Of a stretch of DNA of 64,000 nt, positions 9,444-40,693 are shown piece by piece. The notes below the pieces were generated by a model. That model was not told where the DNA came from. It did no database searches and was given only the letters and a program-made list of their open reading frames with translations. Positions within the stretch are counted from its first letter, which is position 1; each line of letters starts with the position of its first letter. The translations under genes were made by a program, and so were the position numbers. Source of the DNA: Bdellovibrionota bacterium (GTDB taxonomy: Bacteria > Bdellovibrionota_G > JALEGL01 > DATDPG01); assembly GCA_035292885.1 (NCBI GenBank), contig DATDPG010000187.1, positions 857-64,856 on the forward strand. Reading direction: 5' to 3'.

Positions 9444-11926
9444 CAGAACTCCACGCCGAGACCAGGCTGGACGATCCAGCCGCTGACGTCGAGACCTTTG
9501 CTGAATTGGTGCCGGTACGAGCCAAGCACTTCCAAGAAGAAATGCTCAATTCCCATCAGGTCCTGAAGATCGTTTCCGGAGACGAAACGTTCGAGCATCA
9601 GGCGAACGCCGCCCGTGACCGTTATAGCCTGCTTCGCGCCGTTTTCAGACGCCTGCGGTTCGTGGATGTCGAAATAGATCAGGTCGTAGCCGGCGCGCAC
9701 GAACGGAACCGCCAACGGCCGCGCGCCGATTTCCACGTTGTATTGTGCGGAAAACTCCATCGGCACGAGTGTCAGGCGCGACTCTTCGCCGCTCTGCCGC
9801 CCGCTGCTGACACCCACCAGAGCGGCGTCTTCGGAAAAGAATCCCCCCTCGAATCCGAAATCGAACGAACCGGCCCGGACGCCAAACCGGAGCGTGTAGA
9901 TTTCGTTCCCGCCGTTTCCGAAAAAGGAATTCACCAGATCATCTTGCGGCAGCCACCAACCGACGCGGAATTCGGTCGATGCTCGAACCGGTGGCACGCT
10001 TTCAGCGGAAGTCAGCGTCTCGGCCGAAACGGACCGCGTCGACGCCGCCGAACAAACGACCAGGAACATTATGGCGGCCGCCTCGCGGCGACGCGCCGGA
10101 ACCGACAGGAGAAAAATCACGGAAAACAAAATCGGCGGAACCGCAGACGCCGCGCATCCGCCGGTTTCTCCGGACAGCTCTAAAATTCCGATCGTCTGTT
10201 CAGCGGTTTCGGACAGCGTCTCCGTGGGGGCGCTTTCGTTCCCGGATTGATCGACGACCGTCACGCGGACGAAAAGAGTCGTACCGTTGTCGATCGGCTG
10301 CAATGTGAGGGCTGAATCCGCGGTTTGTTCGACCCTCTGGGGTGAGGAGAGCGAGCCGAAGCCTCCTTCTGCGCCGTCGGTCGTGCCGAAATAGACGTTG
10401 TAATGGCTGATGTCCGCCTCCTCCACCTTGTCCCACGCGGCGAAGATTTTCTGATTTCCGAAGGATAAACGAAACCCGGTCGGGGCGGGAGGCGGCGTGT
10501 CTTTCACGACGTCGACCGCCGTCCTGCCGATCAACGTCCCGCTGTCCAAAAAGAGAGCCAACGTGTTGGAACCTTCTTCGAAGTTTTCGGATGGAATGGA
10601 GACTTCCGCTTCGATGTCCGCATCGAGGGAGGCGGAAGTCAAAAGCGAGCCGTTGGTTTTCGACACCCTTTCGTCGGTCGTCCCCGTATACCGGACGACG
10701 GATAGGGTTCCGGTGACATTCGACCGGACAAAGAGGGAAAAATTCCCCGTTCCTATGGAGCCGCTGGGCGCCGAAGTGACGGTCAAAAACGGCTGGTCGG
10801 TGACGACAGACACCGAAGCTCCGGCGTTGTTGAGGGCGTACAGGTATCCTTCGTCCGTCGAGGACGCTGCGAGTCCTCCCGGCGGAACATCGGGAACCGA
10901 ATCAATCGTGGCGATCGGTTCGACCTTCGCCGCTCCACCGATATCCGCTGTATCCACGACCGAAAGCGTTCCCGCCGTGCGGTTCGCGGCGAACAGATAC
11001 GCGGCGCCGGCCGAAGTATCTGCTAGAGAGCGGTTCACCTGCAATACGAGGGAACCGCTCGGCCCGTCGCCGACGACAATGGGATCGAGCGCGGTGGTCG
11101 AAGAATCCGCGTCGCTGATAAAGAGGTTGTTGTCGGTCTGAACCATGTTCACCATGAAAATTTCGCCGGGCGAAACGTTGTTCGAAAGAAAAGCGTAAGT
11201 CCCGCCCGAAGCAGCGCCCACATGAACGCCGCCAAAGGCTTGGGTCGTCGTCTGCGCTCCCAAATCGAGCTCCGCTCCCGCCTGAGAGAGTGCACTTGCC
11301 AGGAATGTCTTGAATTTTCCGTCGGAGCTGATGGCGGCCACCCTTCGGAAATCGGGGGAGAGGGATAGCGAGACGGGATCAAAACCGACGTCGATCCGAT
11401 CTTGAGAACCGTTCTTCACCAGCTCGTCCGACGTGCGACTGAAATAATAAAGCGCACTCTGAGACCGGCTGGAAAGAACCAAGATGTCGGCGCCGCTGGA
11501 ACCCGCCACCTCAAGGTTATCGAATGTCACCCCCGAAGTGCCGATCGAAATCGTCGTGGGGCTCGCGGGCGTCGACGGATCTTTGAGGTCGAACGAGAGG
11601 ACGGAGTCCGCGGCATCGATGACGACATACAAAATTGTGCCGTCTTGGCTGAATGCAAGGTCCCTGGGGGTTCCGGAAAACTGAACGGTCGACTTTTCCG
11701 AGAAAGATAACGTGTCGACGACAACGAGCGAACCTCTGGATGAATCCAAAACGTAGATGTAACGGTCGGTCGGCCCGACCCGTGCCGCGAGTGGCTGAAT
11801 CGACAGGGGAATGACTCCGGCGACCTTGTCCGGATAGGCCACGGCGTTTGCGCCAAGAAGGTAACATCCCGCAATAATAGGGAGAGTTCGGGTTCTGAAA
11901 AGCCGCATGGGATCGCGACGCATCAT
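9443..11926 (-). CDS. large secreted beta-propeller/FN3-like protein with a MYXO-CTERM-like tail, fused in frame to a C-terminal beta-barrel module
   Basis: N-terminal signal peptide, repeated propeller-like segments and an FN3-like block. Then 'GETGGCAASAVPPILFSVIFLLSVPARRRE' (Gly-Gly-Cys, transmembrane stretch, Arg-rich). This is followed, without a stop, by 'MFLVVCSAASTRSVSA' (signal-peptide-like) and a 208-aa beta-barrel-like domain ending in terminal Phe. Confidence 0.55.
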   Translation of the reverse strand: MMRRDPMRLFRTRTLPIIAGCYLLGANAVAYPDKVAGVIPLSIQPLAARVGPTDRYIYVLDSSRGSLVVVDTLSFSEKSTVQFSGTPRDLAFSQDGTILYVVIDAADSVLSFDLKDPSTPASPTTISIGTSGVTFDNLEVAGSSGADILVLSSRSQSALYYFSRTSDELVKNGSQDRIDVGFDPVSLSLSPDFRRVAAISSDGKFKTFLASALSQAGAELDLGAQTTTQAFGGVHVGAASGGTYAFLSNNVSPGEIFMVNMVQTDNNLFISDADSSTTALDPIVVGDGPSGSLVLQVNRSLADTSAGAAYLFAANRTAGTLSVVDTADIGGAAKVEPIATIDSVPDVPPGGLAASSTDEGYLYALNNAGASVSVVTDQPFLTVTSAPSGSIGTGNFSLFVRSNVTGTLSVVRYTGTTDERVSKTNGSLLTSASLDADIEAEVSIPSENFEEGSNTLALFLDSGTLIGRTAVDVVKDTPPPAPTGFRLSFGNQKIFAAWDKVEEADISHYNVYFGTTDGAEGGFGSLSSPQRVEQTADSALTLQPIDNGTTLFVRVTVVDQSGNESAPTETLSETAEQTIGILELSGETGGCAASAVPPILFSVIFLLSVPARRREAAAIMFLVVCSAASTRSVSAETLTSAESVPPVRASTEFRVGWWLPQDDLVNSFFGNGGNEIYTLRFGVRAGSFDFGFEGGFFSEDAALVGVSSGRQSGEESRLTLVPMEFSAQYNVEIGARPLAVPFVRAGYDLIYFDIHEPQASENGAKQAITVTGGVRLMLERFVSGNDLQDLMGIEHFFLEVLGSYRHQFSKGLDVSGWIVQPGLGVEF

Positions 11927-16626: not shown

Positions 16627-17724
16627 ATGAACGTTCAATGCGAAAGCTGCCGGCAGAGCTTTGAAACACCGGTAACGGAAGTCGGGCGCATCGAATACGC
16701 CCGATGCAAGAACGTCTTTCGCGTGAGGTACCGGTTTCGGACGCCCTGTCCCCACTGCAAACAGATCATTCAGCTGACTCCCCACGGCTCTCATTCCGCT
16801 TTGGGAATCCCTTGCAGCATCGCCACGGACGAACCGACCGAGGCGTTCAACGCTCCGCCGCCGGCCATTTCACCGGATGACCCGACGCTGCCGCGAACCT
16901 TGATGCCCGAACTCCCGAATTCACCTCCCCCCAAGGTGAACATCAAGACTCCGGAGGAGCCCCCGAAAAATCTTCGTTTTCGGCTCATCGAAAGTTTTAA
17001 GGGTCGACCGGCGCCGGTGCACGTCGCTCTTCGGCCGAGAAAACGGCCGCCTTTTCCGTTTCTTAAAATCCTTCTCCTCGTCATTATTTCGGTCAGCACG
17101 ATTTTGACGATCGGCTTGACGATTCTCGCGTTCCAATCGGGGAAGGACAAAGCGGAGGTGATTCCCGCGACACCCGGGCCGGAAATTCCGCCTCCTCGCG
17201 AAAACATTCGGCCATCTAACCCGCTCCCCCAGGGCGGACCCGAAAACGACAGCGACGTCGTGGATGACTCTCCTCCCCCGAAGCCGGTCAAACCGACGAT
17301 CAAATCGATTCCCGGCAAAAAGACGGCCGCACTTTACATCCCGAAAATCGAGAAAGTGACGTCGAGCTACGGCCTTCGACGCGATCCGTTCAACGAGGAC
17401 CTGAAATTTCACGGCGGAATCGACATCGCCGCCGACGATCGTTCGGAAGTGAAAGCCGCTCTTGATGGAAGGGTCACGTATGTCGGCCCTAAGGGCGGGT
17501 ATGGAAACGTCGTGATTCTCGACCACAAGGACGGCTACGAGACGCTTTACGGCCACCTCGCCAAGTCGTTGGTCAAAGAGGGGGCCAAAATAAAACAGGG
17601 AGATCTTTTGGGTTTAGTCGGGACGACGGGGAGGACGACAGGGCCCCATTTACATTTCGAGCTTCGTAAGGACGGCAGAAAAGTCGATCCTCTTCGCGCG
17701 AAGCTGATGGCCCGGAAGTCCTGA
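16627..17724 (+). CDS. zinc-ribbon / proline-rich / transmembrane M23-family peptidase
   Basis: N-terminal C..C...C..C ribbon, Pro-rich linker and a transmembrane helix. C-terminal 'HGGIDIAA...GYGNVVILDH...GTTGRTTGPHLHFEL' gives the M23 His/Asp ligands. Confidence 0.8.
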   Translation: MNVQCESCRQSFETPVTEVGRIEYARCKNVFRVRYRFRTPCPHCKQIIQLTPHGSHSALGIPCSIATDEPTEAFNAPPPAISPDDPTLPRTLMPELPNSPPPKVNIKTPEEPPKNLRFRLIESFKGRPAPVHVALRPRKRPPFPFLKILLLVIISVSTILTIGLTILAFQSGKDKAEVIPATPGPEIPPPRENIRPSNPLPQGGPENDSDVVDDSPPPKPVKPTIKSIPGKKTAALYIPKIEKVTSSYGLRRDPFNEDLKFHGGIDIAADDRSEVKAALDGRVTYVGPKGGYGNVVILDHKDGYETLYGHLAKSLVKEGAKIKQGDLLGLVGTTGRTTGPHLHFELRKDGRKVDPLRAKLMARKS

Positions 17725-18529
17725 CCAGACAACCGCCGATTTCAGTGTGGTCTTTGAGATATTCCTTCGCACGCCGAGCTCCCATCACGAATAGCGCCGT
17801 GGAGGCCGCATCCCCACGAGCACCGTCCATCGACAGCACCGTAACGGAAAGAAGGTCGTTTCGGACCGATTTTCCCGTTTCCGGGTTGAGAATATGCCCC
17901 GGCCGCTCGCTTTGGTTCGATGTGGAAATGTAACCTTCCAGCAGCTGTATGGGCGGAAGTTGAGCCTCGCTGGGCGGAGGGAGCGCTACGTTGAATTTCC
18001 ATCGTTCACCGCTCCGCCTCCCGCCGAAAACGCCCGCATTTCCCCCCAAATCGACCAAGGCGGCTCTCGCCCCCGACTTTCGTAGAGGAATCAGGGCTTT
18101 TTCCAGCGCCCCTCCCTTGGCGATTCCGCCCAAGTCGATCCGGATTCCGCGTCGGCGGAACCGAAAACAGTTTTCGCCGGATTCAACGGATTCGTGCCCG
18201 CGATGAATCCCTTTCGGTGAAGAGCCCGCCGTCGGGTCGAAAGCACCTTCGGTTTCCTTCGCGATCTTCAACGCCAAACCGATCATCTCCCGCGTCTCGG
18301 CCGACACCGAAACACACCGGTTAAAACCCTCGCGATTAAGGACGGAGATCTCGCTGTCCGTCTTGTACAAGCTCATCAGACGATCCCAACGATCCACCAC
18401 CGCATGCGCCTCTTGAACCGCCCGAAGCGCCTCGACCTCGGAGAGCCCGACGACTTCGACGCGCAAAAAAGTTCCCATCGTCGGCCAGACCCGCACCAGG
18501 GAGGGCGGCTCGGCTCGAAGGCAACCCAT
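17573..18529 (-). CDS. apbE: FAD:protein FMN transferase (ApbE family)
   Basis: 'MGTFLRVEV', 'DLGGIAKG' and 'DAASTALFVMG' are ApbE hallmarks. The start is uncertain (MGCL at 18529 or MGTF at 18478). The 3' tail overlaps the convergent M23 gene and looks like non-coding composition. Confidence 0.7.
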   Translation of the reverse strand: MGCLRAEPPSLVRVWPTMGTFLRVEVVGLSEVEALRAVQEAHAVVDRWDRLMSLYKTDSEISVLNREGFNRCVSVSAETREMIGLALKIAKETEGAFDPTAGSSPKGIHRGHESVESGENCFRFRRRGIRIDLGGIAKGGALEKALIPLRKSGARAALVDLGGNAGVFGGRRSGERWKFNVALPPPSEAQLPPIQLLEGYISTSNQSERPGHILNPETGKSVRNDLLSVTVLSMDGARGDAASTALFVMGARRAKEYLKDHTEIGGCLVRTSGPSASREEDRLFCRPYEARNVNGALSSSPSSRLNPKDLPVLFWPPL

Positions 18530-18598
18530 TAAGGGGACACACGACGTAACCCAAATTCGTATCCACCAATTCGGGTCCAGTCGCTTGTCCCCGTAATT
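18529..18598. repeat. REP-like inverted-repeat pair (BIME-like)
   Basis: 'ttaaggggacacacgacgtaacccaaattc' + 9-nt spacer + 'aattcgggtccagtcgcttgtccccgtaatt'. Both are related to the inverted repeats that flank the RayT remnant at 40697-41236. Confidence 0.55.
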
Positions 18599-19182
18599 CA
18601 CAGCGAATGTTGTGCCAGTTTCACAACGCCACTCTCCCCATTTTGGGATTGACGCGCAGGCTCCTTGGGCCACCACATTTCCCGGAAAGGCACGGCCATC
18701 ATGTAACCCAGGGCAAACGTCAGTACGATCATGTTTCCGATCTGAACGTACGAAAGGCCGGGATGAACAAAACGGACGAGCCAGGGCGCGGCAATCCCCA
18801 GGAGATAAGACGCGAACGCCGATACGATCACGATGCTTTTCGAGCGGTCTTTGAGACGCGTAAGCGTGAAAAGATGCGCCAAGATAAACAGCAAGATTCC
18901 CTGAATGAACAGGTGAGGATGACTGACGTCCCCTAATTCCTCTTTGGTTTTCGGAAAAAGCATCTTCGGCGAGGCCGGCCTTTCCACGTTCTCATTCCCG
19001 CGCACATATTCCGCCGCCACGCTGGGTTGGAAACTCGTTTTCGCATGAAACATTACAACGCTGAGGGCGATGGCGGCCGCCATCGCCAGATAAAAACAGG
19101 AGATCAAGAGCCGCGAACTCGCCGGAAGATACGAATAGTAAAAGTCGCGACGGGGATATTTCTGAGCGTAGATCGAACTCAT
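18598..19182 (-). CDS. His-rich 4-TM membrane protein (possible heme-b / DUF4405-like electron-transfer subunit)
   Basis: Four predicted helices with His residues at the helix boundaries ('MFHAK', 'SHPHLF', 'ILAHLF', 'FVHPG'). It sits between the FMN-binding gene and apbE. Confidence 0.55.
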   Translation of the reverse strand: MSSIYAQKYPRRDFYYSYLPASSRLLISCFYLAMAAAIALSVVMFHAKTSFQPSVAAEYVRGNENVERPASPKMLFPKTKEELGDVSHPHLFIQGILLFILAHLFTLTRLKDRSKSIVIVSAFASYLLGIAAPWLVRFVHPGLSYVQIGNMIVLTFALGYMMAVPFREMWWPKEPARQSQNGESGVVKLAQHSL

Positions 19183-19784
19183 GGATGGATTACCCTCACC
19201 GGTCCGTAGAACTCACGGGTGAATATCAGCGCGCGCCGTGTCGCCACCGCGACGGAATCCGAGGAGATCGTCGCGCCCGAAATGTGAATGATGTCCCGAT
19301 GAATCCGAATCGGATCGTTCGGCGACTTTCCCTCGAACTGGCGCAAGAACCGCTTACGGCTGACTTCGCCGCCGCGCGATTCGCGATAGACCATTACCGC
19401 TATTTCTTTCACGGCCAACTCCGGCGTGATCGCGACCAAGATCGTGATCGGCCGGTACTTCCCTTTTTCGTTCATCACGAGTCCGTACCCGAACAGGGAG
19501 CCATTCTTGTCGACGGCCCGATGAAAAACCAGCGTCTGCTCTTCAAACGGGTGACCGATCTTCTGTTCTACGTTCCGTCGAATTTCCGGTGAAATCTCTT
19601 TCGTGTCGTTTTCGAACCGGGCGGCTTCGGGAAAGGTCTCCTTCAATGCTTGGTCCTCGGTAAGAAGAATCTGTTCCTTTCCGATCTCTTCCTCCGTCGG
19701 TGTCGGCTCCGCCTCGGCGCCGATCACTCGCGGCGCAAGAAACACCTGGGTCAGCGCAAGAAACAAGATCCACTGTCCCATCAA
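19179..19784 (-). CDS. secreted FMN-binding domain protein (NqrC/RnfG/NosR-type) with a flavinylation motif
   Basis: Signal peptide 'MMGQWILFLALTQVFLAPRVIGAEA'. 'DIIHISGATISS' fits the Dxx(s/t)GA(T/S) site flavinylated by ApbE. Confidence 0.75.
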   Translation of the reverse strand: MMGQWILFLALTQVFLAPRVIGAEAEPTPTEEEIGKEQILLTEDQALKETFPEAARFENDTKEISPEIRRNVEQKIGHPFEEQTLVFHRAVDKNGSLFGYGLVMNEKGKYRPITILVAITPELAVKEIAVMVYRESRGGEVSRKRFLRQFEGKSPNDPIRIHRDIIHISGATISSDSVAVATRRALIFTREFYGPVRVIHP

Positions 19785-20974
19785 AAATACGTCGCGAACG
19801 AAAAAGCCAATTGACTCCCTTCGTCCAGCCCCGTCCCGTTCTCGTTCGCCGCGACACCGAAAAGCGCGTAATCGATCTTGAAGACGGTCTCGTCGATCGG
19901 CCGGAAATTGAGGCCGACGGTGAAACGATCGGTGTAGGTGTCCGCGGGCTGGGAACGCTCCGTCGCCAAGTCATATCGAACGACACCCGTGAAATGACTG
20001 TCGGGCACCGCCGAGAAAAGCCCGTGCAAGAATTTGTATTGAAGCTGGCCGTACAGACCCTGTTGGTTCACTCCCTTTTCGACCCACGCTTTGGCGTATT
20101 CCCCCAAAAGTTCGAACGCTCCGCGCGAATACGTCACGTCGACCGCCCCAATCGTCAGCCAGTCCTCCCCATTGTCGCTGTATGCGCCGGTATGGACGGA
20201 ACCGCCGACCTCCAAACCGAGAAAAGGGCTGTAGGCGACACGCGACACCATGCTCTTGTCCCGGTTGTTGTCCGAACCGGCTCCGCCGCGGCCTTCCCGA
20301 AGATCCGTTCCGGCGGCGTTCACCGTATCGCCGTCAAAGCCGTTGACGACATAAATCTCGTAGCTCATGGCCGCTTCTTCCGTCGGATAGAAACTCCCGA
20401 AAAAACCGACCCCCGCCTCGGACAATGTCGTCGGAATGACATATCGATCGACCAACGGCCGATCGGTCAATTCATTGATCGGACCGTCGTGAACCAGGTT
20501 GAACCGGCCGAGAGGGTCGAGAATCAAACCGCCACGGAAATTCAGCCAATCCGTCATTCGAAAATCGAGCGTGACAAATTCGACCTTGATTTCCCCGTCC
20601 GTCTCTTCCGTCGGGTCTCCCGCGACGAAGCCGCCATGTTCGAATTCAATTTCGGCGGAAAGATGCAACCGGGGGTGGATCTCCCCGAAAATGAACGGCA
20701 CAAAACGAGTCTGATCGAAAAACGTCTTGTCCGAACCGGTGTCAAACGTATTGAAAAACTGCGTGTCGAAATAACCGCCGAGAAAAGAACCCTTTCCGAA
20801 CTTCACGACAAAGGGTTTGGAATAAAGCCCCCCGGTGGTCGTCGAAGGGGTGGATGCCTTGATCGGGGACGGTGTGGGTGTCACTTGGGGCTCCACCTCT
20901 TGCGCCCAAGTTTTGCCGCAAATCACAACGATCGCAGAAGCCGCCAACGAACCGATTGAATTACGCCGTCGCAT
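19781..20974 (-). CDS. outer-membrane beta-barrel protein (porin-like)
   Basis: Signal peptide 'MRRRNSIGSLAASAIVVICGKTWAQE'. Alternating amphipathic strands and C-terminal 'FATYF' ending in Phe. The start overlaps the fur stop by 14 nt. Confidence 0.65.
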   Translation of the reverse strand: MRRRNSIGSLAASAIVVICGKTWAQEVEPQVTPTPSPIKASTPSTTTGGLYSKPFVVKFGKGSFLGGYFDTQFFNTFDTGSDKTFFDQTRFVPFIFGEIHPRLHLSAEIEFEHGGFVAGDPTEETDGEIKVEFVTLDFRMTDWLNFRGGLILDPLGRFNLVHDGPINELTDRPLVDRYVIPTTLSEAGVGFFGSFYPTEEAAMSYEIYVVNGFDGDTVNAAGTDLREGRGGAGSDNNRDKSMVSRVAYSPFLGLEVGGSVHTGAYSDNGEDWLTIGAVDVTYSRGAFELLGEYAKAWVEKGVNQQGLYGQLQYKFLHGLFSAVPDSHFTGVVRYDLATERSQPADTYTDRFTVGLNFRPIDETVFKIDYALFGVAANENGTGLDEGSQLAFSFATYF

Positions 20975-21422
20975 GCCTTTCCTCTCCTTTTTTGGTTTTG
21001 GCCCCGCAACTTTGACAGAGGCCGTACAGCTCCATTTTGTGGGACCGAAGTTCGTAGCCGTACTGTTCGGCCACCTCATCCTGAAGCTTTTCGATTTCGG
21101 GCCTCTGGAACTCCACAATCTTGCCGCAGGAAGTGCAAATCAAATGATCGTGGTGCTCTTTGGGAATTTTTTCGTACGTCGTCGCCCCGGTTTCGAAGTT
21201 ACGCCGCGCCGCCAAATTGGCCGCCACCAAGAGATTGAGTGTGCGGTAGACAGTGGCAATACCGATCTTGGGATTGACGCGCTGGACGGCCCCGTACAGC
21301 TCCTCGATGCCCACATGCTTCGACATTGAAAAGAACACGCGCGCCACCTGCTCCCGCCTTTTCGAGTGCCGGAGCCCTTGAACCGAGAGGTACCTTTCAA
21401 AATCATCCATCCAGCGCCGCAT
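20961..21422 (-). CDS. fur: Fur-family metalloregulator (Fur/Zur/PerR)
   Basis: 'HHDHLICTSCGKI...GLCQSCG' gives the HHDH motif and two CxxC pairs. N-terminal winged helix. The subfamily cannot be assigned from sequence alone. Confidence 0.85.
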   Translation of the reverse strand: MRRWMDDFERYLSVQGLRHSKRREQVARVFFSMSKHVGIEELYGAVQRVNPKIGIATVYRTLNLLVAANLAARRNFETGATTYEKIPKEHHDHLICTSCGKIVEFQRPEIEKLQDEVAEQYGYELRSHKMELYGLCQSCGAKTKKGEERHATA

Positions 21423-21440
21423 TTTGGATCACCGTCCTTT

Positions 21441-21482
21441 ATTGATACGGCTTATCAATATCAACTGCAATGCGGCCGTCAA
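21441..21482 (-). promoter_or_regulatory. putative promoter with a Fur-box-like inverted repeat (autoregulatory operator)
   Basis: Inverted repeat 'ATTGATAcggctTATCAAT' (21441-21459). On the minus strand, TTGACG-N16-TATTGA overlaps it directly upstream of fur. Confidence 0.35.
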
Positions 21483-21530: not shown

Positions 21531-22064
21531 CTATAGGGGTGGCGCGGAAAACTCGGGACGTGCAATACGAATCAGGTCCCGAAGTTCTTCGGCGCACCGC
21601 TCGGCGTCGGCGTGAAGCTCACGCGCTTGAAGTTCCTTCATCAGTTCGCTAAGCGCATAAATTCGATCGCCCGCGAGCGTGCTCTGAAAAGCGATTTTTC
21701 GCATGATTCGGAATCGTTCTTGTTCGGCGTCGAAGCGCTCGCGGCGCATACCGAGGGTTCGGTAAACCGAAATCAGAAGCGTCGAGCACCAGACGGCCGC
21801 CGGACTCATCGGATACTGTGCGACGGCGAGTCTCGCCCAATACAGCGTGCCCCGGAGATCGCCCCCCCAAAACGAGCTCGAGGCTAAACCCGCCTGGGCC
21901 AGCGGGCGCAATGCCGGTATGCCCCGTTCCGCCAAACGTTCGAGGCAGCGTCTTCCGCGGGTTCGGGTTTTTTCGCGTTCGCAAAGCAACAGAGCCCGCC
22001 GAAGATCGGCAAGATCTTCGGGGTCGATATTGCAGGGTCCGAGCAGCTGCAGGAACTTCTCCAT
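21531..22064 (-). CDS. hypothetical all-helical protein
   Basis: 177-aa ORF with coding-like composition. No recognisable motif. Confidence 0.4.
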   Translation of the reverse strand: MEKFLQLLGPCNIDPEDLADLRRALLLCEREKTRTRGRRCLERLAERGIPALRPLAQAGLASSSFWGGDLRGTLYWARLAVAQYPMSPAAVWCSTLLISVYRTLGMRRERFDAEQERFRIMRKIAFQSTLAGDRIYALSELMKELQARELHADAERCAEELRDLIRIARPEFSAPPL

Positions 22065-37899: not shown

Positions 37900-39597
37900 A
37901 TGAAAAACCTTCTTCTTTTCTCGACGATCCTGGGATTTTCCACGACCTTCGCATTCGCTGTACAGACCTATCGGCCGAGCAACGACGCAAAAAAAGCGGC
38001 GCAGACCATTCAGGCCGACACGATTCTCGGCCCTACCCGTTTTTTGTCCAGCGATCTGCTGGAGGGGCGCGCGCCGGCTTCCAACGGCGACCATCTCGCT
38101 CAGCAATATATCGCCTCTCAGTTTGAGGCCGAAGGACTCAAGCCGGCGGGACCCAACGGTTCCTGGTTTCAAGAATTCGATCTGGTCGGCGTCACGTCAG
38201 GCGCACCCAAAATCATCCACTTTCAAAACAAATCTAAGACCTTGTCTCTAAAATATTCCACGGACTATATGGGCGTCTCCGGAATCCAAAGTGAAACAGC
38301 CAGTGTAAAAAGCGCCGAACTTGTCTTTGTCGGATACGGAATCGTCGCACCCGAGTATGGCTGGGATGATTTTAAGGACGTCGACGTCCGGGGAAAAATA
38401 CTACTGATGATGAACAACGATCCTTCGTCGGACGACAAGCTGTTCGCCGGAAAGACGAGACTCTATTACGGCCGGTGGACGTACAAATATGAAATCGCCG
38501 CCGCGAAGGGGGCCGCGGGCGCCATCATCATTCATACGCATGAGTCCGCGGGTTACCCGTGGCAGGTCGTACAGACCTCCTGGGCCGGTGAACAGTTCGA
38601 ACTTCCGCACGAAGGAGGCCCGACGACGGTCTTTAACGCATGGGCCACGGAAGATTCCGTGAAGAAACTTGTCGCGCTTTCGGGAAAGAACCTCGACGAA
38701 CTTCGTGCGGCGGCCGAGAAAAAGGACTTTCGACCCGTGCCGCTGGGAACCACGTTTTCCGTTCAAATGAAGAACGTCCTTCACAAAACGAAGACGGCAA
38801 ACGTCCTCGGCATTCTGACCGGATCCGACCCCGAACTTTCAAAAGAAGCGGTCGTTTACATGGCCCATCACGATCACCTCGGCAAAAAGGCTGGGGCCAA
38901 ACCGGGAGAGGACACGATTTATAACGGCGCACTCGACAACGCGAGCGGCGTGGGGGCCCTTTTGGCGCTCGTCCGCGCATACAACTCTCTGTCCGAACGT
39001 CCACGAAGATCGATTCTCTTCGCCGCCGTAGGCGCCGAAGAGGCCGGGACGTTGGGATCCGAATATTTGGCGCACCGCCCTGTTATCGAACCGGGCCGCA
39101 TGGCGGCCGTGATTAACATGGACGGCATTTCCATTTGGGGCGCTGCTTCCGACCTCACGATGGTCGGAAAAGGGAAATCGACGCTCGATACCGAAGTCGA
39201 ATCGATCGCCAAAATGCAGGGCCGGATCGTTAAACCGGATCAATTCCCGGACCGGGGCTACTACTACCGATCGGATCATTTTAGTTTGGCCAAGATCGGG
39301 GTTCCGGCGGCTTACTTCGACGCGGGAATCGACATCCTCGGCAAACCGAAGGGTTGGGGAAAGGAACAGATCGAAAAGTGGGAGGACACGCACTATCACC
39401 AACCGAGCGATGAAGTCCGGCCGGACTGGGATTTGAGCGGCGCCGTCCAGGACATCCAGCTCAATTTTTATCTCGGCTACGAAGTCGCCCAGGCCAAGGA
39501 GATGCCACGCTGGAATCCGAACGATGAATTCGAGGCCGTGCGATTGGAAGCGTTGAAGAGAATCGCGACCCAGAAGGGAACCACGGTCCATAAGTAG
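37900..39597 (+). CDS. M28-family metallopeptidase with PA domain (secreted aminopeptidase)
   Basis: Signal peptide 'MKNLLLFSTILGFSTTFAFA'. M28 motifs 'AHHDHLG', 'NGALDNASGV', 'GAEEAG' and 'HQPSDE'. Confidence 0.8.
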   Translation: MKNLLLFSTILGFSTTFAFAVQTYRPSNDAKKAAQTIQADTILGPTRFLSSDLLEGRAPASNGDHLAQQYIASQFEAEGLKPAGPNGSWFQEFDLVGVTSGAPKIIHFQNKSKTLSLKYSTDYMGVSGIQSETASVKSAELVFVGYGIVAPEYGWDDFKDVDVRGKILLMMNNDPSSDDKLFAGKTRLYYGRWTYKYEIAAAKGAAGAIIIHTHESAGYPWQVVQTSWAGEQFELPHEGGPTTVFNAWATEDSVKKLVALSGKNLDELRAAAEKKDFRPVPLGTTFSVQMKNVLHKTKTANVLGILTGSDPELSKEAVVYMAHHDHLGKKAGAKPGEDTIYNGALDNASGVGALLALVRAYNSLSERPRRSILFAAVGAEEAGTLGSEYLAHRPVIEPGRMAAVINMDGISIWGAASDLTMVGKGKSTLDTEVESIAKMQGRIVKPDQFPDRGYYYRSDHFSLAKIGVPAAYFDAGIDILGKPKGWGKEQIEKWEDTHYHQPSDEVRPDWDLSGAVQDIQLNFYLGYEVAQAKEMPRWNPNDEFEAVRLEALKRIATQKGTTVHK

Positions 39598-39598
39598 C

Positions 39599-40693
39599 AT
39601 GGGTCTTTCGTGCGGTATCGTGGGGCTTCCCAATGTCGGGAAGTCGACCCTCTTTAATGCTCTGTCGTCGGCTCGGGCGGAAGCGGCGAATTATCCGTTC
39701 TGCACGATCGATCCGAACGTGGGTATCGTACCGGTTCCGGATCCGCGGCTGGATCATATCGCCTCCGTCTTCAAACCGGAGAAAGTAACCCCCACCACTA
39801 TTGAGTTTGTGGATATCGCGGGCCTCGTAAAAGGCGCGAGCAAAGGAGAAGGTCTCGGGAACCAGTTCCTCGGACATATTCGTGAAACGGACGCCATCAT
39901 TCATATCGTCCGCTGTTTTGAAGATCCGAATGTCGTGCATGTGGAAGGGAGCGTCGATCCGAAACGCGATATCGAGACCATCGAAACCGAACTCTGCCTG
40001 GCCGATCTCGATACAGCTACAAAAGCCGCCGACCGCGCCCAAAAGGCTGCAAAATCGGCGGATAAGGCACTCGTGGCAAAGTCTGCCGCACTAACGGCCA
40101 TACGGGATCACCTGGGAAAAGGCCTACCGGCCCGCTCCCTTCGATTGCCGGACGAAGGGATGGAAGCTTTTCGAGAGCTTCACCTCCTCACGGCGAAACC
40201 GGTCCTTTACGTCTGCAATGTCGGCGAATCGAGTGTCGGCAAACCGAATCCGTATGTCGATATCGTCCGAAAGATTGCGGAGACGGAAGGAGCCGACGTG
40301 GTGGAAGTCTCCGCCCGAGTGGAAGCGGAGATTTCAGAACTGTCGGTGGAAGAACGAAAAAGTTTCCTTCAGGATCTCGGCCTGACCGAGTCCGGCCTCG
40401 ACCGGGTCATTCGCGCGGCCTATCACCTTCTCGGGCTCATGACGTTCTTTACGGCCGGACCGAAAGAATGCCGGGCCTGGACGATCAAGAAAGGGACGAA
40501 AGCTCCGCAAGCGGCCGGAACGATCCATTCCGATTTTGAGCGCGGATTCATCTGTGCCGAGATTTACCATTTCAACGATCTCGTCGAGCATAAAACCGAA
40601 GCCGCCGCTCGGGCGAAGGGCAAGATCCGATTGGAAGGAAAAGAGTACGTCATGAAAGACGGCGATCTCGTTTTCTTCCGGTTTAACGTATAA
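39599..40693 (+). CDS. ychF: redox-regulated ribosome-binding ATPase YchF
   Basis: '[17 protein letters not shown]' and a TGS domain at the C-terminus. It starts 1 nt after the upstream stop. Confidence 0.9.

Follow-up and report, generated by a model that had tools for sequence, protein, structure and literature searches.

What is the function of an operon that begins with the gene for a Fur-family metalloregulator and continues with genes for an outer-membrane porin, a secreted flavin mononucleotide (FMN)-binding protein, a small inner-membrane protein with four transmembrane (TM) helices and the flavin transferase ApbE? This question is raised by a locus on the minus strand of a stretch of 64,000 nucleotides (nt) of a Bdellovibrionota bacterium (contig DATDPG010000187.1), which in its full length is referred to here as the window and by whose numbering the operon occupies positions 17573-21482. 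Our analysis leads us to propose that the locus is autoregulated by Fur and encodes a module for iron acquisition that spans the envelope and combines a Fur-repressed periplasmic ferric reductase with uptake; we put the probability of this reading at roughly 55%.

All five open reading frames (ORFs) described in the initial annotation of this DNA were found where it had placed them (Table 1), and the tight coupling it had pointed out is evident from the junctions as read from the sequence, the genes overlapping by 14, 1-4, 4 and 4 nt. The ATG of the porin gene, preceded by AAAGGAGAGG, sits 14 nt inside the 3' end of fur. The porin and FMN_bind genes meet in a TGATG, in which the ATG shares the A of the porin TGA (1 nt); an alternative TTG start one codon upstream would turn this into a TTGA junction. 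Stop and start codons of the FMN_bind gene and the gene of the 4-TM protein (TM4) are joined in an ATGA, and those of the latter and apbE in a GTGA, provided that ApbE begins at the GTG at 18601. When read from this codon ApbE carries a lipoprotein-type signal, MNYGDKRLDPNWWIRIWVTSCVPLMG/C (…VTSCVPLMG/C, the slash marking the cleavage site). Automatic gene callers put the start at an ATG 72 nt downstream, a form that has no signal peptide. Because apbE begins directly after the TM4 stop codon in L004, the corresponding locus in a relative of the window genome, we favour the long form. The entire five-gene cluster is present in L004, with proteins that are 60-67% identical to those of the window, and this recurrence supports the earlier assumption that the five genes form one operon.

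Table 1. Positions of the operon components in the window and of the modules of a second PF27139 subfamily in other loci
Feature	Locus	Position	Strand	Description
fur	window	20961..21422	minus	Fur-family metalloregulator, 153 aa; PF01475 E 1.8e-36
porin	window	19781..20974	minus	outer-membrane 16-strand barrel, OprP fold, 397 aa
FMN_bind	window	19179..19784	minus	secreted RnfG/NqrC-like protein, 200-201 aa; PF04205 E 8.8e-7
4-TM protein	window	18598..19182	minus	inner membrane, 194 aa; PF27139 Aq_1264_TM
apbE	window	17573..18601	minus	FAD:protein FMN transferase, 342 aa from GTG 18601; PF02424 E 4e-47
Fur-box-like operator	window	21440..21464		perfect 8-5-8 inverted repeat and a third TATCAA hexamer
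second-subfamily module	L088	4380-7130		
second-subfamily module	L089	4481-7139		
second-subfamily module	L090	4489-7127		
aa, amino acids; FAD, flavin adenine dinucleotide.

The regulator is a member of the Fur family, as had been assumed, and scores 125 bits with the PF01475 model as compared to a cut-off of 23.1. Alignment to the Fur protein of C. jejuni (4ets) shows the HHDH motif and two CxxC pairs, and the Glu and His residues at the regulatory-site positions are conserved between the two proteins. Its best relatives in the PDB are C. jejuni Fur (1e-32), R. leguminosarum Mur (5fd5), Magnetospirillum Fur (4raz) and H. pylori Fur, followed at a larger distance by PerR (6e-19) and Zur (2.5e-6) proteins. 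The NCBIfam models rank it in the same way, with 98-109 bits for Fur, 80 and 60 bits for PerR and 40 bits for Zur. By E-values, bit scores and type of operator the protein is closer to Fur and Mur than to PerR or Zur, and it is a Fur-like and probably iron-sensing regulator.

The operator is located 18-42 nt before the fur ATG (20-40 nt for the repeat itself), within a gap of 108 nt, and consists of arms at 21440-21447 and 21453-21460 which are 100% complementary (TATTGATA-N5-TATCAATA). Inverted repeats of 7-8 nt are by themselves expected many times by chance in 64 kb, and for a relaxed inverted-repeat pattern search 0.76 matches are expected. No other site on either strand of the window matches the 19-mer Fur box GATAATGATAATCATTATC (15/19) or the 7-1-7 Fur consensus TGATAATNATTATCA (12/15) as well as this operator does. 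It fits poorly to the PerR box (9/15) and the Zur box (8/15), for which consensus sequences of the B. subtilis literature were used. The promoter region of L004 contains two overlapping 16/19 Fur-box matches, the best in that locus. With the delta-proteobacterial FUR box TTGAAAATCATTTTCAA the window operator agrees in 12/17 positions, and its spacing from the fur start is similar to that of the fur boxes of Geobacter, which are at -30/-31 (PMC545781). The repeat noticed in the initial annotation is real and slightly longer than claimed (8-5-8). Its proposed overlap with a -10 element was an overstatement, no sigma-70-like promoter upstream of fur having passed a promoter scan.

Is this arrangement peculiar to the window genome? 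A scan of one genome per GTDB species for relatives of the barrel yielded 490 stretches confirmed by tblastn, the best 80 of which were scored with home-made hidden Markov models (HMMs) and are the basis of the counts out of 80 given here. These loci, seven of which are truncated downstream (less than 1.5 kb of sequence), span Latescibacterota, Gemmatimonadota, Planctomycetota (including Scalindua and Brocadia), Eisenbacteria, Krumholzibacteriota, Zixibacteria, Nitrospinota, Rhodothermaceae, Fibrobacteraceae and Marinimicrobia. L014 is a metagenome-assembled genome assigned to Gemmatimonas phototrophica, a species that can be cultivated. Barrel homologues of about ten phyla are encoded in a conserved order of porin, FMN_bind and membrane partner: an FMN_bind gene follows the porin gene immediately and on the same strand in 63/80 loci, and 59 have both FMN_bind and a membrane partner. 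This partner is a PF27139 protein in 38 loci and in another 23 a 2-TM PepSY_TM-like protein with a BNR/sortilin-like periplasmic domain; the two were never found together (0/80). Homology between them was considered and is rejected by an hhalign probability of 0.4%. The PepSY_TM-like partner carries the conserved motifs HRxxG, HP and HxxHTG, and FoxB, which reduces ferri-siderophores, and the ferric reductase VciB are both PepSY_TM proteins (PMC8238504, PMC11334425). That two non-homologous proteins alternate in the same slot argues for a redox-supplying role of PF27139 equivalent to that of PepSY_TM.

The surroundings of these loci point in the same direction as the regulator of the window. 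FeoA-FeoB lie directly upstream, divergent or co-directional, in 24 of the 80 loci, FTR1 is present in three, and in 25 (raw count) the locus-best match to the E. coli-type Fur consensus is upstream of the porin. A Fur-family gene belongs to the cluster in just two, L030 from Eisenbacteria (Fur-FeoB-porin-FMN_bind-TM4-ApbE) and L069 from Planctomycetota. ApbE follows in 25 loci and a secreted protein of about 300 residues in 11. The latter protein is conserved and takes the place of ApbE after PF27139 in FeoAB-linked loci of Latescibacterota and Gemmatimonadota (L007 10286-11182 and about 20 others, such as L009, L011, L013 and L022); the L007 copy has no Pfam, NCBIfam or PDB match. The layout of the operon is not unique to the window genome, then, and represents a widespread conserved module, apparently undescribed, of which the fur-headed form is rare.

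The product of the third gene had been described as a signal-peptide FMN-binding protein with a flavinylation site, and it has all of these elements: a match to PF04205 (29.9 bits as compared to a cut-off of 22), an N-terminal signal peptide (MGQWILFLALTQVFLAPRVIG/AE) and the flavinylation motif DIIHISGATISS at 19295-19260, with the core DIIHISGAT and the predicted flavinylated residue, Thr171, in SGAT (codon 19271-19269). With its domain, motif and signal peptide, and with apbE in the same cluster, the protein combines the features of a predicted ApbE substrate. RnfG models match it at 5e-11 with 42 bits, which is below their cut-off of 230. In the related loci the motif mostly reads NRDIINI[ST]GAT[LMI]SVR; a regular expression for it matched in 76/80, of which two matches look spurious, leaving about 74 recognisable flavinylation motifs. 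Among 72 FMN_bind homologues from these loci YRESRG, RFLxQ, K153 and NRDI..[ST]GAT.S are invariant.

The ApbE assignment of the initial annotation is borne out by the PF02424 match, and by its lipoprotein-type signal the enzyme would be extracytoplasmic if it starts at GTG 18601. In natural TM4-ApbE fusions (P0260, P0325) the TM4 and ApbE parts are still separated by a signal-like or lipobox segment. Anammox-type loci of Planctomycetota, including Scalindua and Brocadiales, have FMN_bind and ApbE matches within the same ORFs of about 560-600 residues (L049, L060, L069, L070, L072, L073, L078), which suggests that these long ORFs are FMN_bind-ApbE fusions. PF27139 genes precede or follow these ORFs, and the encoded proteins have Arg at the position equivalent to H103 of the window protein in L049, L060 and L078. 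The TM4-ApbE and the apparent FMN_bind-ApbE fusions point to a physical association of the parts. A search for fusions as a functional clue gave TM4-ApbE fusions only, which back association and topology and not chemistry.

The porin has a signal peptide (…KTWA/QE) and a Pro/Thr-rich N-terminal linker, and it ends in Phe as described, with a C-terminus that reads …ATYF. Its best-conserved stretch is an L3-type constriction loop (PLGRFNLxHDxPxN…RP…PTTLSE) together with the strand EIEFEHGG. H162 and D163 of this loop are invariant. Conservation of such a loop suggests that the channel is constricted at a specific site and is not a general pore. Similarity to the OprO/P family PF07396 is weak. 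Five loci of Latescibacterota (L020, L024, L033, L034, L038) have a second, paralogous porin gene right after the trio of porin, FMN_bind and PepSY_TM-like genes.

It is the membrane protein for which the initial annotation has to be revised. According to precomputed Pfam annotation, the exact protein and its relatives belong to PF27139 (Aq_1264_TM); searches of local Pfam and NCBIfam libraries gave no match, the PF27139 model being absent from that Pfam set. A profile search of 1.8 billion cluster representatives retrieved 1204 members of this family, nearly all of them stand-alone proteins of 155-190 residues, and at 50% identity the family comprises more than 1000 cluster representatives. 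By the positive-inside rule both termini of the protein are cytoplasmic, with which the topology of the TM4-ApbE fusions agrees, and the HxH of its S-H-x-H-L-F motif (H88, H90; 18924-18907), at the start of TM2, is therefore placed at the periplasmic surface, while H103 is located deeper in TM2. In 127 diverse representatives of PF27139, H88 and H90 (S/T-H-x-H-L-F) are invariant and are the only invariant His residues; strong conservation is also seen at W134, R137, K115, F105, F123 and W170. H103 occurs in 57% of the family and in 33/45 porin-linked copies. To call the protein His-rich was an overstatement, since it has six His in 194 residues and just H88 and H90 are conserved. An AlphaFold2 model shows a plain four-helix bundle (pLDDT, the predicted local confidence score, 82.8). 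The window protein and its L004 orthologue have Gly at position 129 (codon 18796-18798) where most porin-linked PF27139 proteins have Asp (LLGIAAPW versus LLDIAKPW); Asp occupies this position in 98% of the close set and in 33% of the diverse representatives.

The proposed relationship to DUF4405 and cytochrome b-like proteins is not supported either. Huang et al. (2024, PMC11334425) have shown DUF4405 and FezC to be heme b proteins, and these resemble TM4 in being small, His-bearing membrane proteins which are tied to flavinylated proteins and iron. TM4 however gives no DUF4405 match at E<=10, has four instead of six TM helices and two adjacent His (HxH) instead of four central ones, and gives no fold match to them, and on these grounds it is not placed among the DUF4405/FezC-type cytochromes b. 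More generally, neither its sequence nor its fold matches known membrane cytochromes. FezC forms its heme sites by homodimerisation (PMC11334425), and since H88 and H103 are 15 residues apart (i, i+15) and according to a helical wheel face about the same side of the helix, with H90 facing away, a FezC-style homodimer with bis-His hemes is conceivable for the PF27139 protein as a matter of speculation. Two TM4 paralogues flank the FMN_bind gene in L015 and L084 (Longimicrobiales), which hints at a TM4 dimer.

How would these components act together? As long as iron is present, Fur-Fe(II) would repress the operon at 21440-21464; when iron becomes scarce, Fur would leave the operator and the five genes would be expressed as one translationally coupled unit. 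The OprP-fold porin, presumably a selective one, would admit iron species to the periplasm, where the ApbE lipoprotein would attach FMN covalently to Thr171 in the SGAT of the secreted RnfG/NqrC-like protein. The PF27139 protein, probably as a dimer, would be the inner-membrane partner of this flavoprotein and would, with heme b or no cofactor at all, pass electrons from the membrane, be it from quinol or from the cytoplasmic side, to the FMN at the periplasmic HxH. The reduced flavoprotein would turn Fe(III), its presumed substrate, into Fe(II), and a ferrous transporter, which is FeoB in sister loci and would here be encoded outside the window, would import it. A metal-responsive, perhaps iron-responsive, extracytoplasmic reductase and uptake system had also been the idea of the initial annotation, which gains from the Fur-type box, from the FeoAB genes upstream of the porin and from the FMN_bind gene behind it, and loses its DUF4405-like membrane partner.

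Several of our observations weigh against this proposal, and some of them would be accommodated by other explanations. The cluster contains no ferrous or ferric transporter gene, and none was recognised elsewhere in the window. The only FeoB-like match, at 39557-40690, is short and probably represents another GTPase, the same HMM having also matched an Obg-family gene in L007. The regulator stays below the NCBIfam Fur equivalog cut-offs (NF006999, NF051891, NF051892), with 107-109 bits versus 146-220, as it does for all NCBIfam equivalog models, and the manganese regulator Mur of R. leguminosarum is its second-best structural relative. Fur-consensus sites upstream of porins are enriched about 2-3 fold across phyla in comparison with an intergenic control, which lends weak support to Fur control; at a threshold of at least 13/19 they occur in 23% versus 7.6% of other intergenic DNA, with test segments that are longer than the controls. 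Might the regulator then sense a signal other than iron, such as peroxide (PerR), zinc (Zur), manganese (Mur) or nickel (Nur), and the module serve another metal or periplasmic redox repair by delivering electrons to an unlinked periplasmic enzyme? Flavinylated proteins do serve many extracytosolic reductases (PMC8238504), and other members of PF27139 are encoded beside Zn- and Ni-type transporters (see below). We nonetheless consider this decidedly improbable, given that Fur models beat those of PerR and Zur by 20-70 bits, that the operator fits Fur and not the PerR and Zur consensus boxes, that FeoAB is a recurrent and FTR1 an occasional neighbour, and that the cluster contains no gene for a terminal reductase such as MsrP or NosZ. 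Iron could also be the acceptor and not the cargo, if the module were a dissimilatory conduit for extracellular electron transfer, that is a porin-flavoprotein counterpart of porin-cytochrome complexes that sends electrons out to external Fe(III). In Listeria, extracellular electron transfer proceeds through ApbE-flavinylated proteins (PMC8238504), and in the module porin and redox protein are adjacent as in MtrAB-type systems. But a 16-strand barrel with an OprP-like constriction loop is too narrow for a 20-kDa protein, fur heads the cluster, the module is linked to the importer FeoAB, and the locus has no gene for a NADH dehydrogenase, quinone biosynthesis or a multiheme protein, so that we give this possibility very little credence.

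Further points against a periplasmic ferric reductase come from PF27139 itself. As H103 is found in 57% of the family only, a two-heme transmembrane wire is not a family-wide feature, and the one universally conserved site of the family is on the periplasmic face. A second subfamily of PF27139 (182 residues; found, for example, in Methylomirabilota) is encoded in the order BBP2-type barrel, TM4, secreted protein of 193 residues (Table 1). The secreted protein is remotely homologous to the FMN_bind protein of the window (BLASTP E 2e-4) and gives a faint PF04205 match; it is devoid of the [ST]GA[TS] motif, and after maturation it is predicted to start with His (HITPPV). ApbE is not encoded nearby, and ZnuA/ABC-3 or NicO genes adjoin. 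Judged from this comparison, the deeper conserved unit would consist of an outer-membrane barrel, TM4 and an FMN_bind-like periplasmic protein, with covalent flavin as a feature of the branch with psp-type porins (see below) that includes the window, and the deep function of the triad may need neither covalent flavin nor iron. This comparison also allows for a metal-handling role of the HxH. TM4 and its periplasmic partner would then handle metal and not electrons: the HxH and nearby polar residues would bind Fe(II) or another divalent metal coming from the porin and hand it to an importer or translocate it, and the flavin would be accessory, for example by keeping iron reduced. Such a hand-off would suit the position of the sole invariant His residues at the membrane-periplasm interface, two His at i and i+2 of a helix, which cannot both ligate one heme, as well as the missing fold match to membrane cytochromes. 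On the other hand, in the porin-linked subfamily the slot is alternatively filled by a PepSY_TM-like protein with the motifs of a heme reductase family, FeoB or FTR1 already provide a permease in many loci, and a 4-TM protein of 170 residues is small for a transporter. Moreover, the flavinylation motif is kept in most loci and ApbE in many, which argues that redox chemistry is central. We therefore regard metal hand-off as unlikely and prefer the Fur-controlled reductase and uptake module as an explanation of the locus.

As interpreted here, the module would join the known flavinylated systems that transfer electrons outside the cytosol and serve iron assimilation. Méheust et al. (2021, PMC8238504) described five uncharacterised flavinylation-associated membrane systems, among them a PepSY-like one tied to iron. 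Like the window operon, the PepSY-like systems pair an ApbE-flavinylated periplasmic protein with a small partner in the inner membrane, are under Fur control and have been proposed to reduce and assimilate iron, and sister loci of the window module hold a PepSY_TM-like protein in the slot of the 4-TM protein. The domains that define these systems, PF03929 or PF16357 in a flavinylation cluster, are present in the 23 sister loci and absent from the window, whose partner protein, PF27139, is not homologous and whose flavoprotein is of the FMN_bind and not the DUF2271 type. HiuABC of Caulobacter is likewise a Fur-regulated operon; it encodes an importer in the outer membrane, a reductase in the inner membrane and a small membrane protein (PMC13001220). 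Different from both the PepSY-like and the HiuABC systems, however, the outer-membrane part in the window is a passive OprP-fold porin instead of a TonB-dependent transporter. With RnfG and NqrC the window flavoprotein has in common the FMN_bind fold, the SGAT-type site and an ETPG-like motif, YRESRG; it differs from them in its low score (42 versus 230 bits), in the absence of other Rnf or Nqr subunits nearby and in its cleavable signal-type N-terminus. TonB-independent passage of iron through an outer-membrane channel and then FeoB is known from OmpC-Feo of E. coli (PMC7315122) and FupA/FeoB of Francisella (PMC5378763), yet these systems lack a periplasmic flavoprotein or reductase of their own, and redox components are not encoded alongside their porins.

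A possible forerunner of the porin is 'psp', a PF07396-like porin with tandem FUR boxes which Rodionov et al. (2004) predicted in Geobacter (G. metallireducens) and Desulfuromonas (PMC545781). Its homologues were found only in Aquifex and in uncultured bacteria, and a role in ferrous iron transport was guessed (PMC545781). By description, that is by weak PF07396 similarity, FUR boxes upstream and a delta-proteobacterial setting, psp is probably a relative of the window porin, and it fits with Aquifex homologues of psp that PF27139 is named after an Aquifex protein (Aq_1264). The 2004 analysis gave the porin alone, without FMN_bind, 4-TM and ApbE partners (PMC545781). A full-text literature search found no description of a system of porin, FMN_bind and PF27139, with or without ApbE and FeoAB; Méheust et al. 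2021 (PMC8238504) use neither the word 'porin' nor 'DUF4405', and 'porin' is also missing from Huang et al. 2024 (PMC11334425). In the literature searched, the layout has no named counterpart, as had been stated earlier, which is to be qualified by the prediction of a psp-like Fur-box porin in 2004 (PMC545781) and by the PepSY-type flavinylated iron systems of 2021 (PMC8238504).

The operon is flanked by housekeeping genes, upstream by those for UvrC and ComEC and an ORF of 177 codons, and downstream by a convergent gene for an M23 peptidase and by genes for DUF465, Psd and PssA proteins. The 177-codon ORF (21531-22064, minus strand) lies between comEC and fur; 108 nt, including the Fur box, separate its end from fur. 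Pfam, NCBIfam and PDB contain no relative of this ORF, which is conserved in the same lineage only (L001-L005) and is not counted as a member of the system. The 3' end of apbE overlaps the M23 peptidase gene (plus strand, 16627-17724) by 152 nt (17573-17724), and in L004 the orthologous genes share about 100 nt (11543-11643). The Pfam domain of ApbE stops about 56 residues before the end of the protein, so that the remaining tail could be dispensable, or else the overlap could serve regulation. An Rfam scan of the window detected no RNA family, hence no FMN or other riboswitch, and terminator-like matches were at or below the number expected from shuffled sequence.

What does this module mean for the bacteria that carry it? 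Tentatively, and with odds somewhat short of even, we suggest that the path from porin through ApbE-flavinylated reductase to ferrous importer represents a widespread, so far unrecognised reductive route of iron uptake in diderm bacteria, which would depend on neither TonB nor siderophores and would operate in Latescibacterota, Gemmatimonadota, anammox Planctomycetota, Eisenbacteria, Krumholzibacteriota, Nitrospinota, Bdellovibrionota and others. PF27139 would be a new class of membrane redox proteins that energises this route via its HxH, either as a homodimeric carrier of heme b or as a cofactor-less quinol:flavin mediator. How bacteria that lack siderophores convert Fe(III) from their surroundings to the Fe(II) imported by FeoB has been worked out mainly for a few models, such as reductive uptake in cyanobacteria and the OmpC-Feo pathway of E. 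coli. Compact and genetically linked, the module is a candidate for the entire pathway across the envelope, with pore, reductase, electron supply and maturation enzyme, and its carriers belong to many environmentally important and little-studied phyla, anammox bacteria included. PF27139, an uncharacterised family, thereby gains a testable functional context, and its replacement by PepSY_TM in sister loci is a natural experiment on the supply of electrons to periplasmic flavoproteins. Within this family of modules the fur-headed, translationally coupled version in the window is the clearest regulatory pointer to iron.

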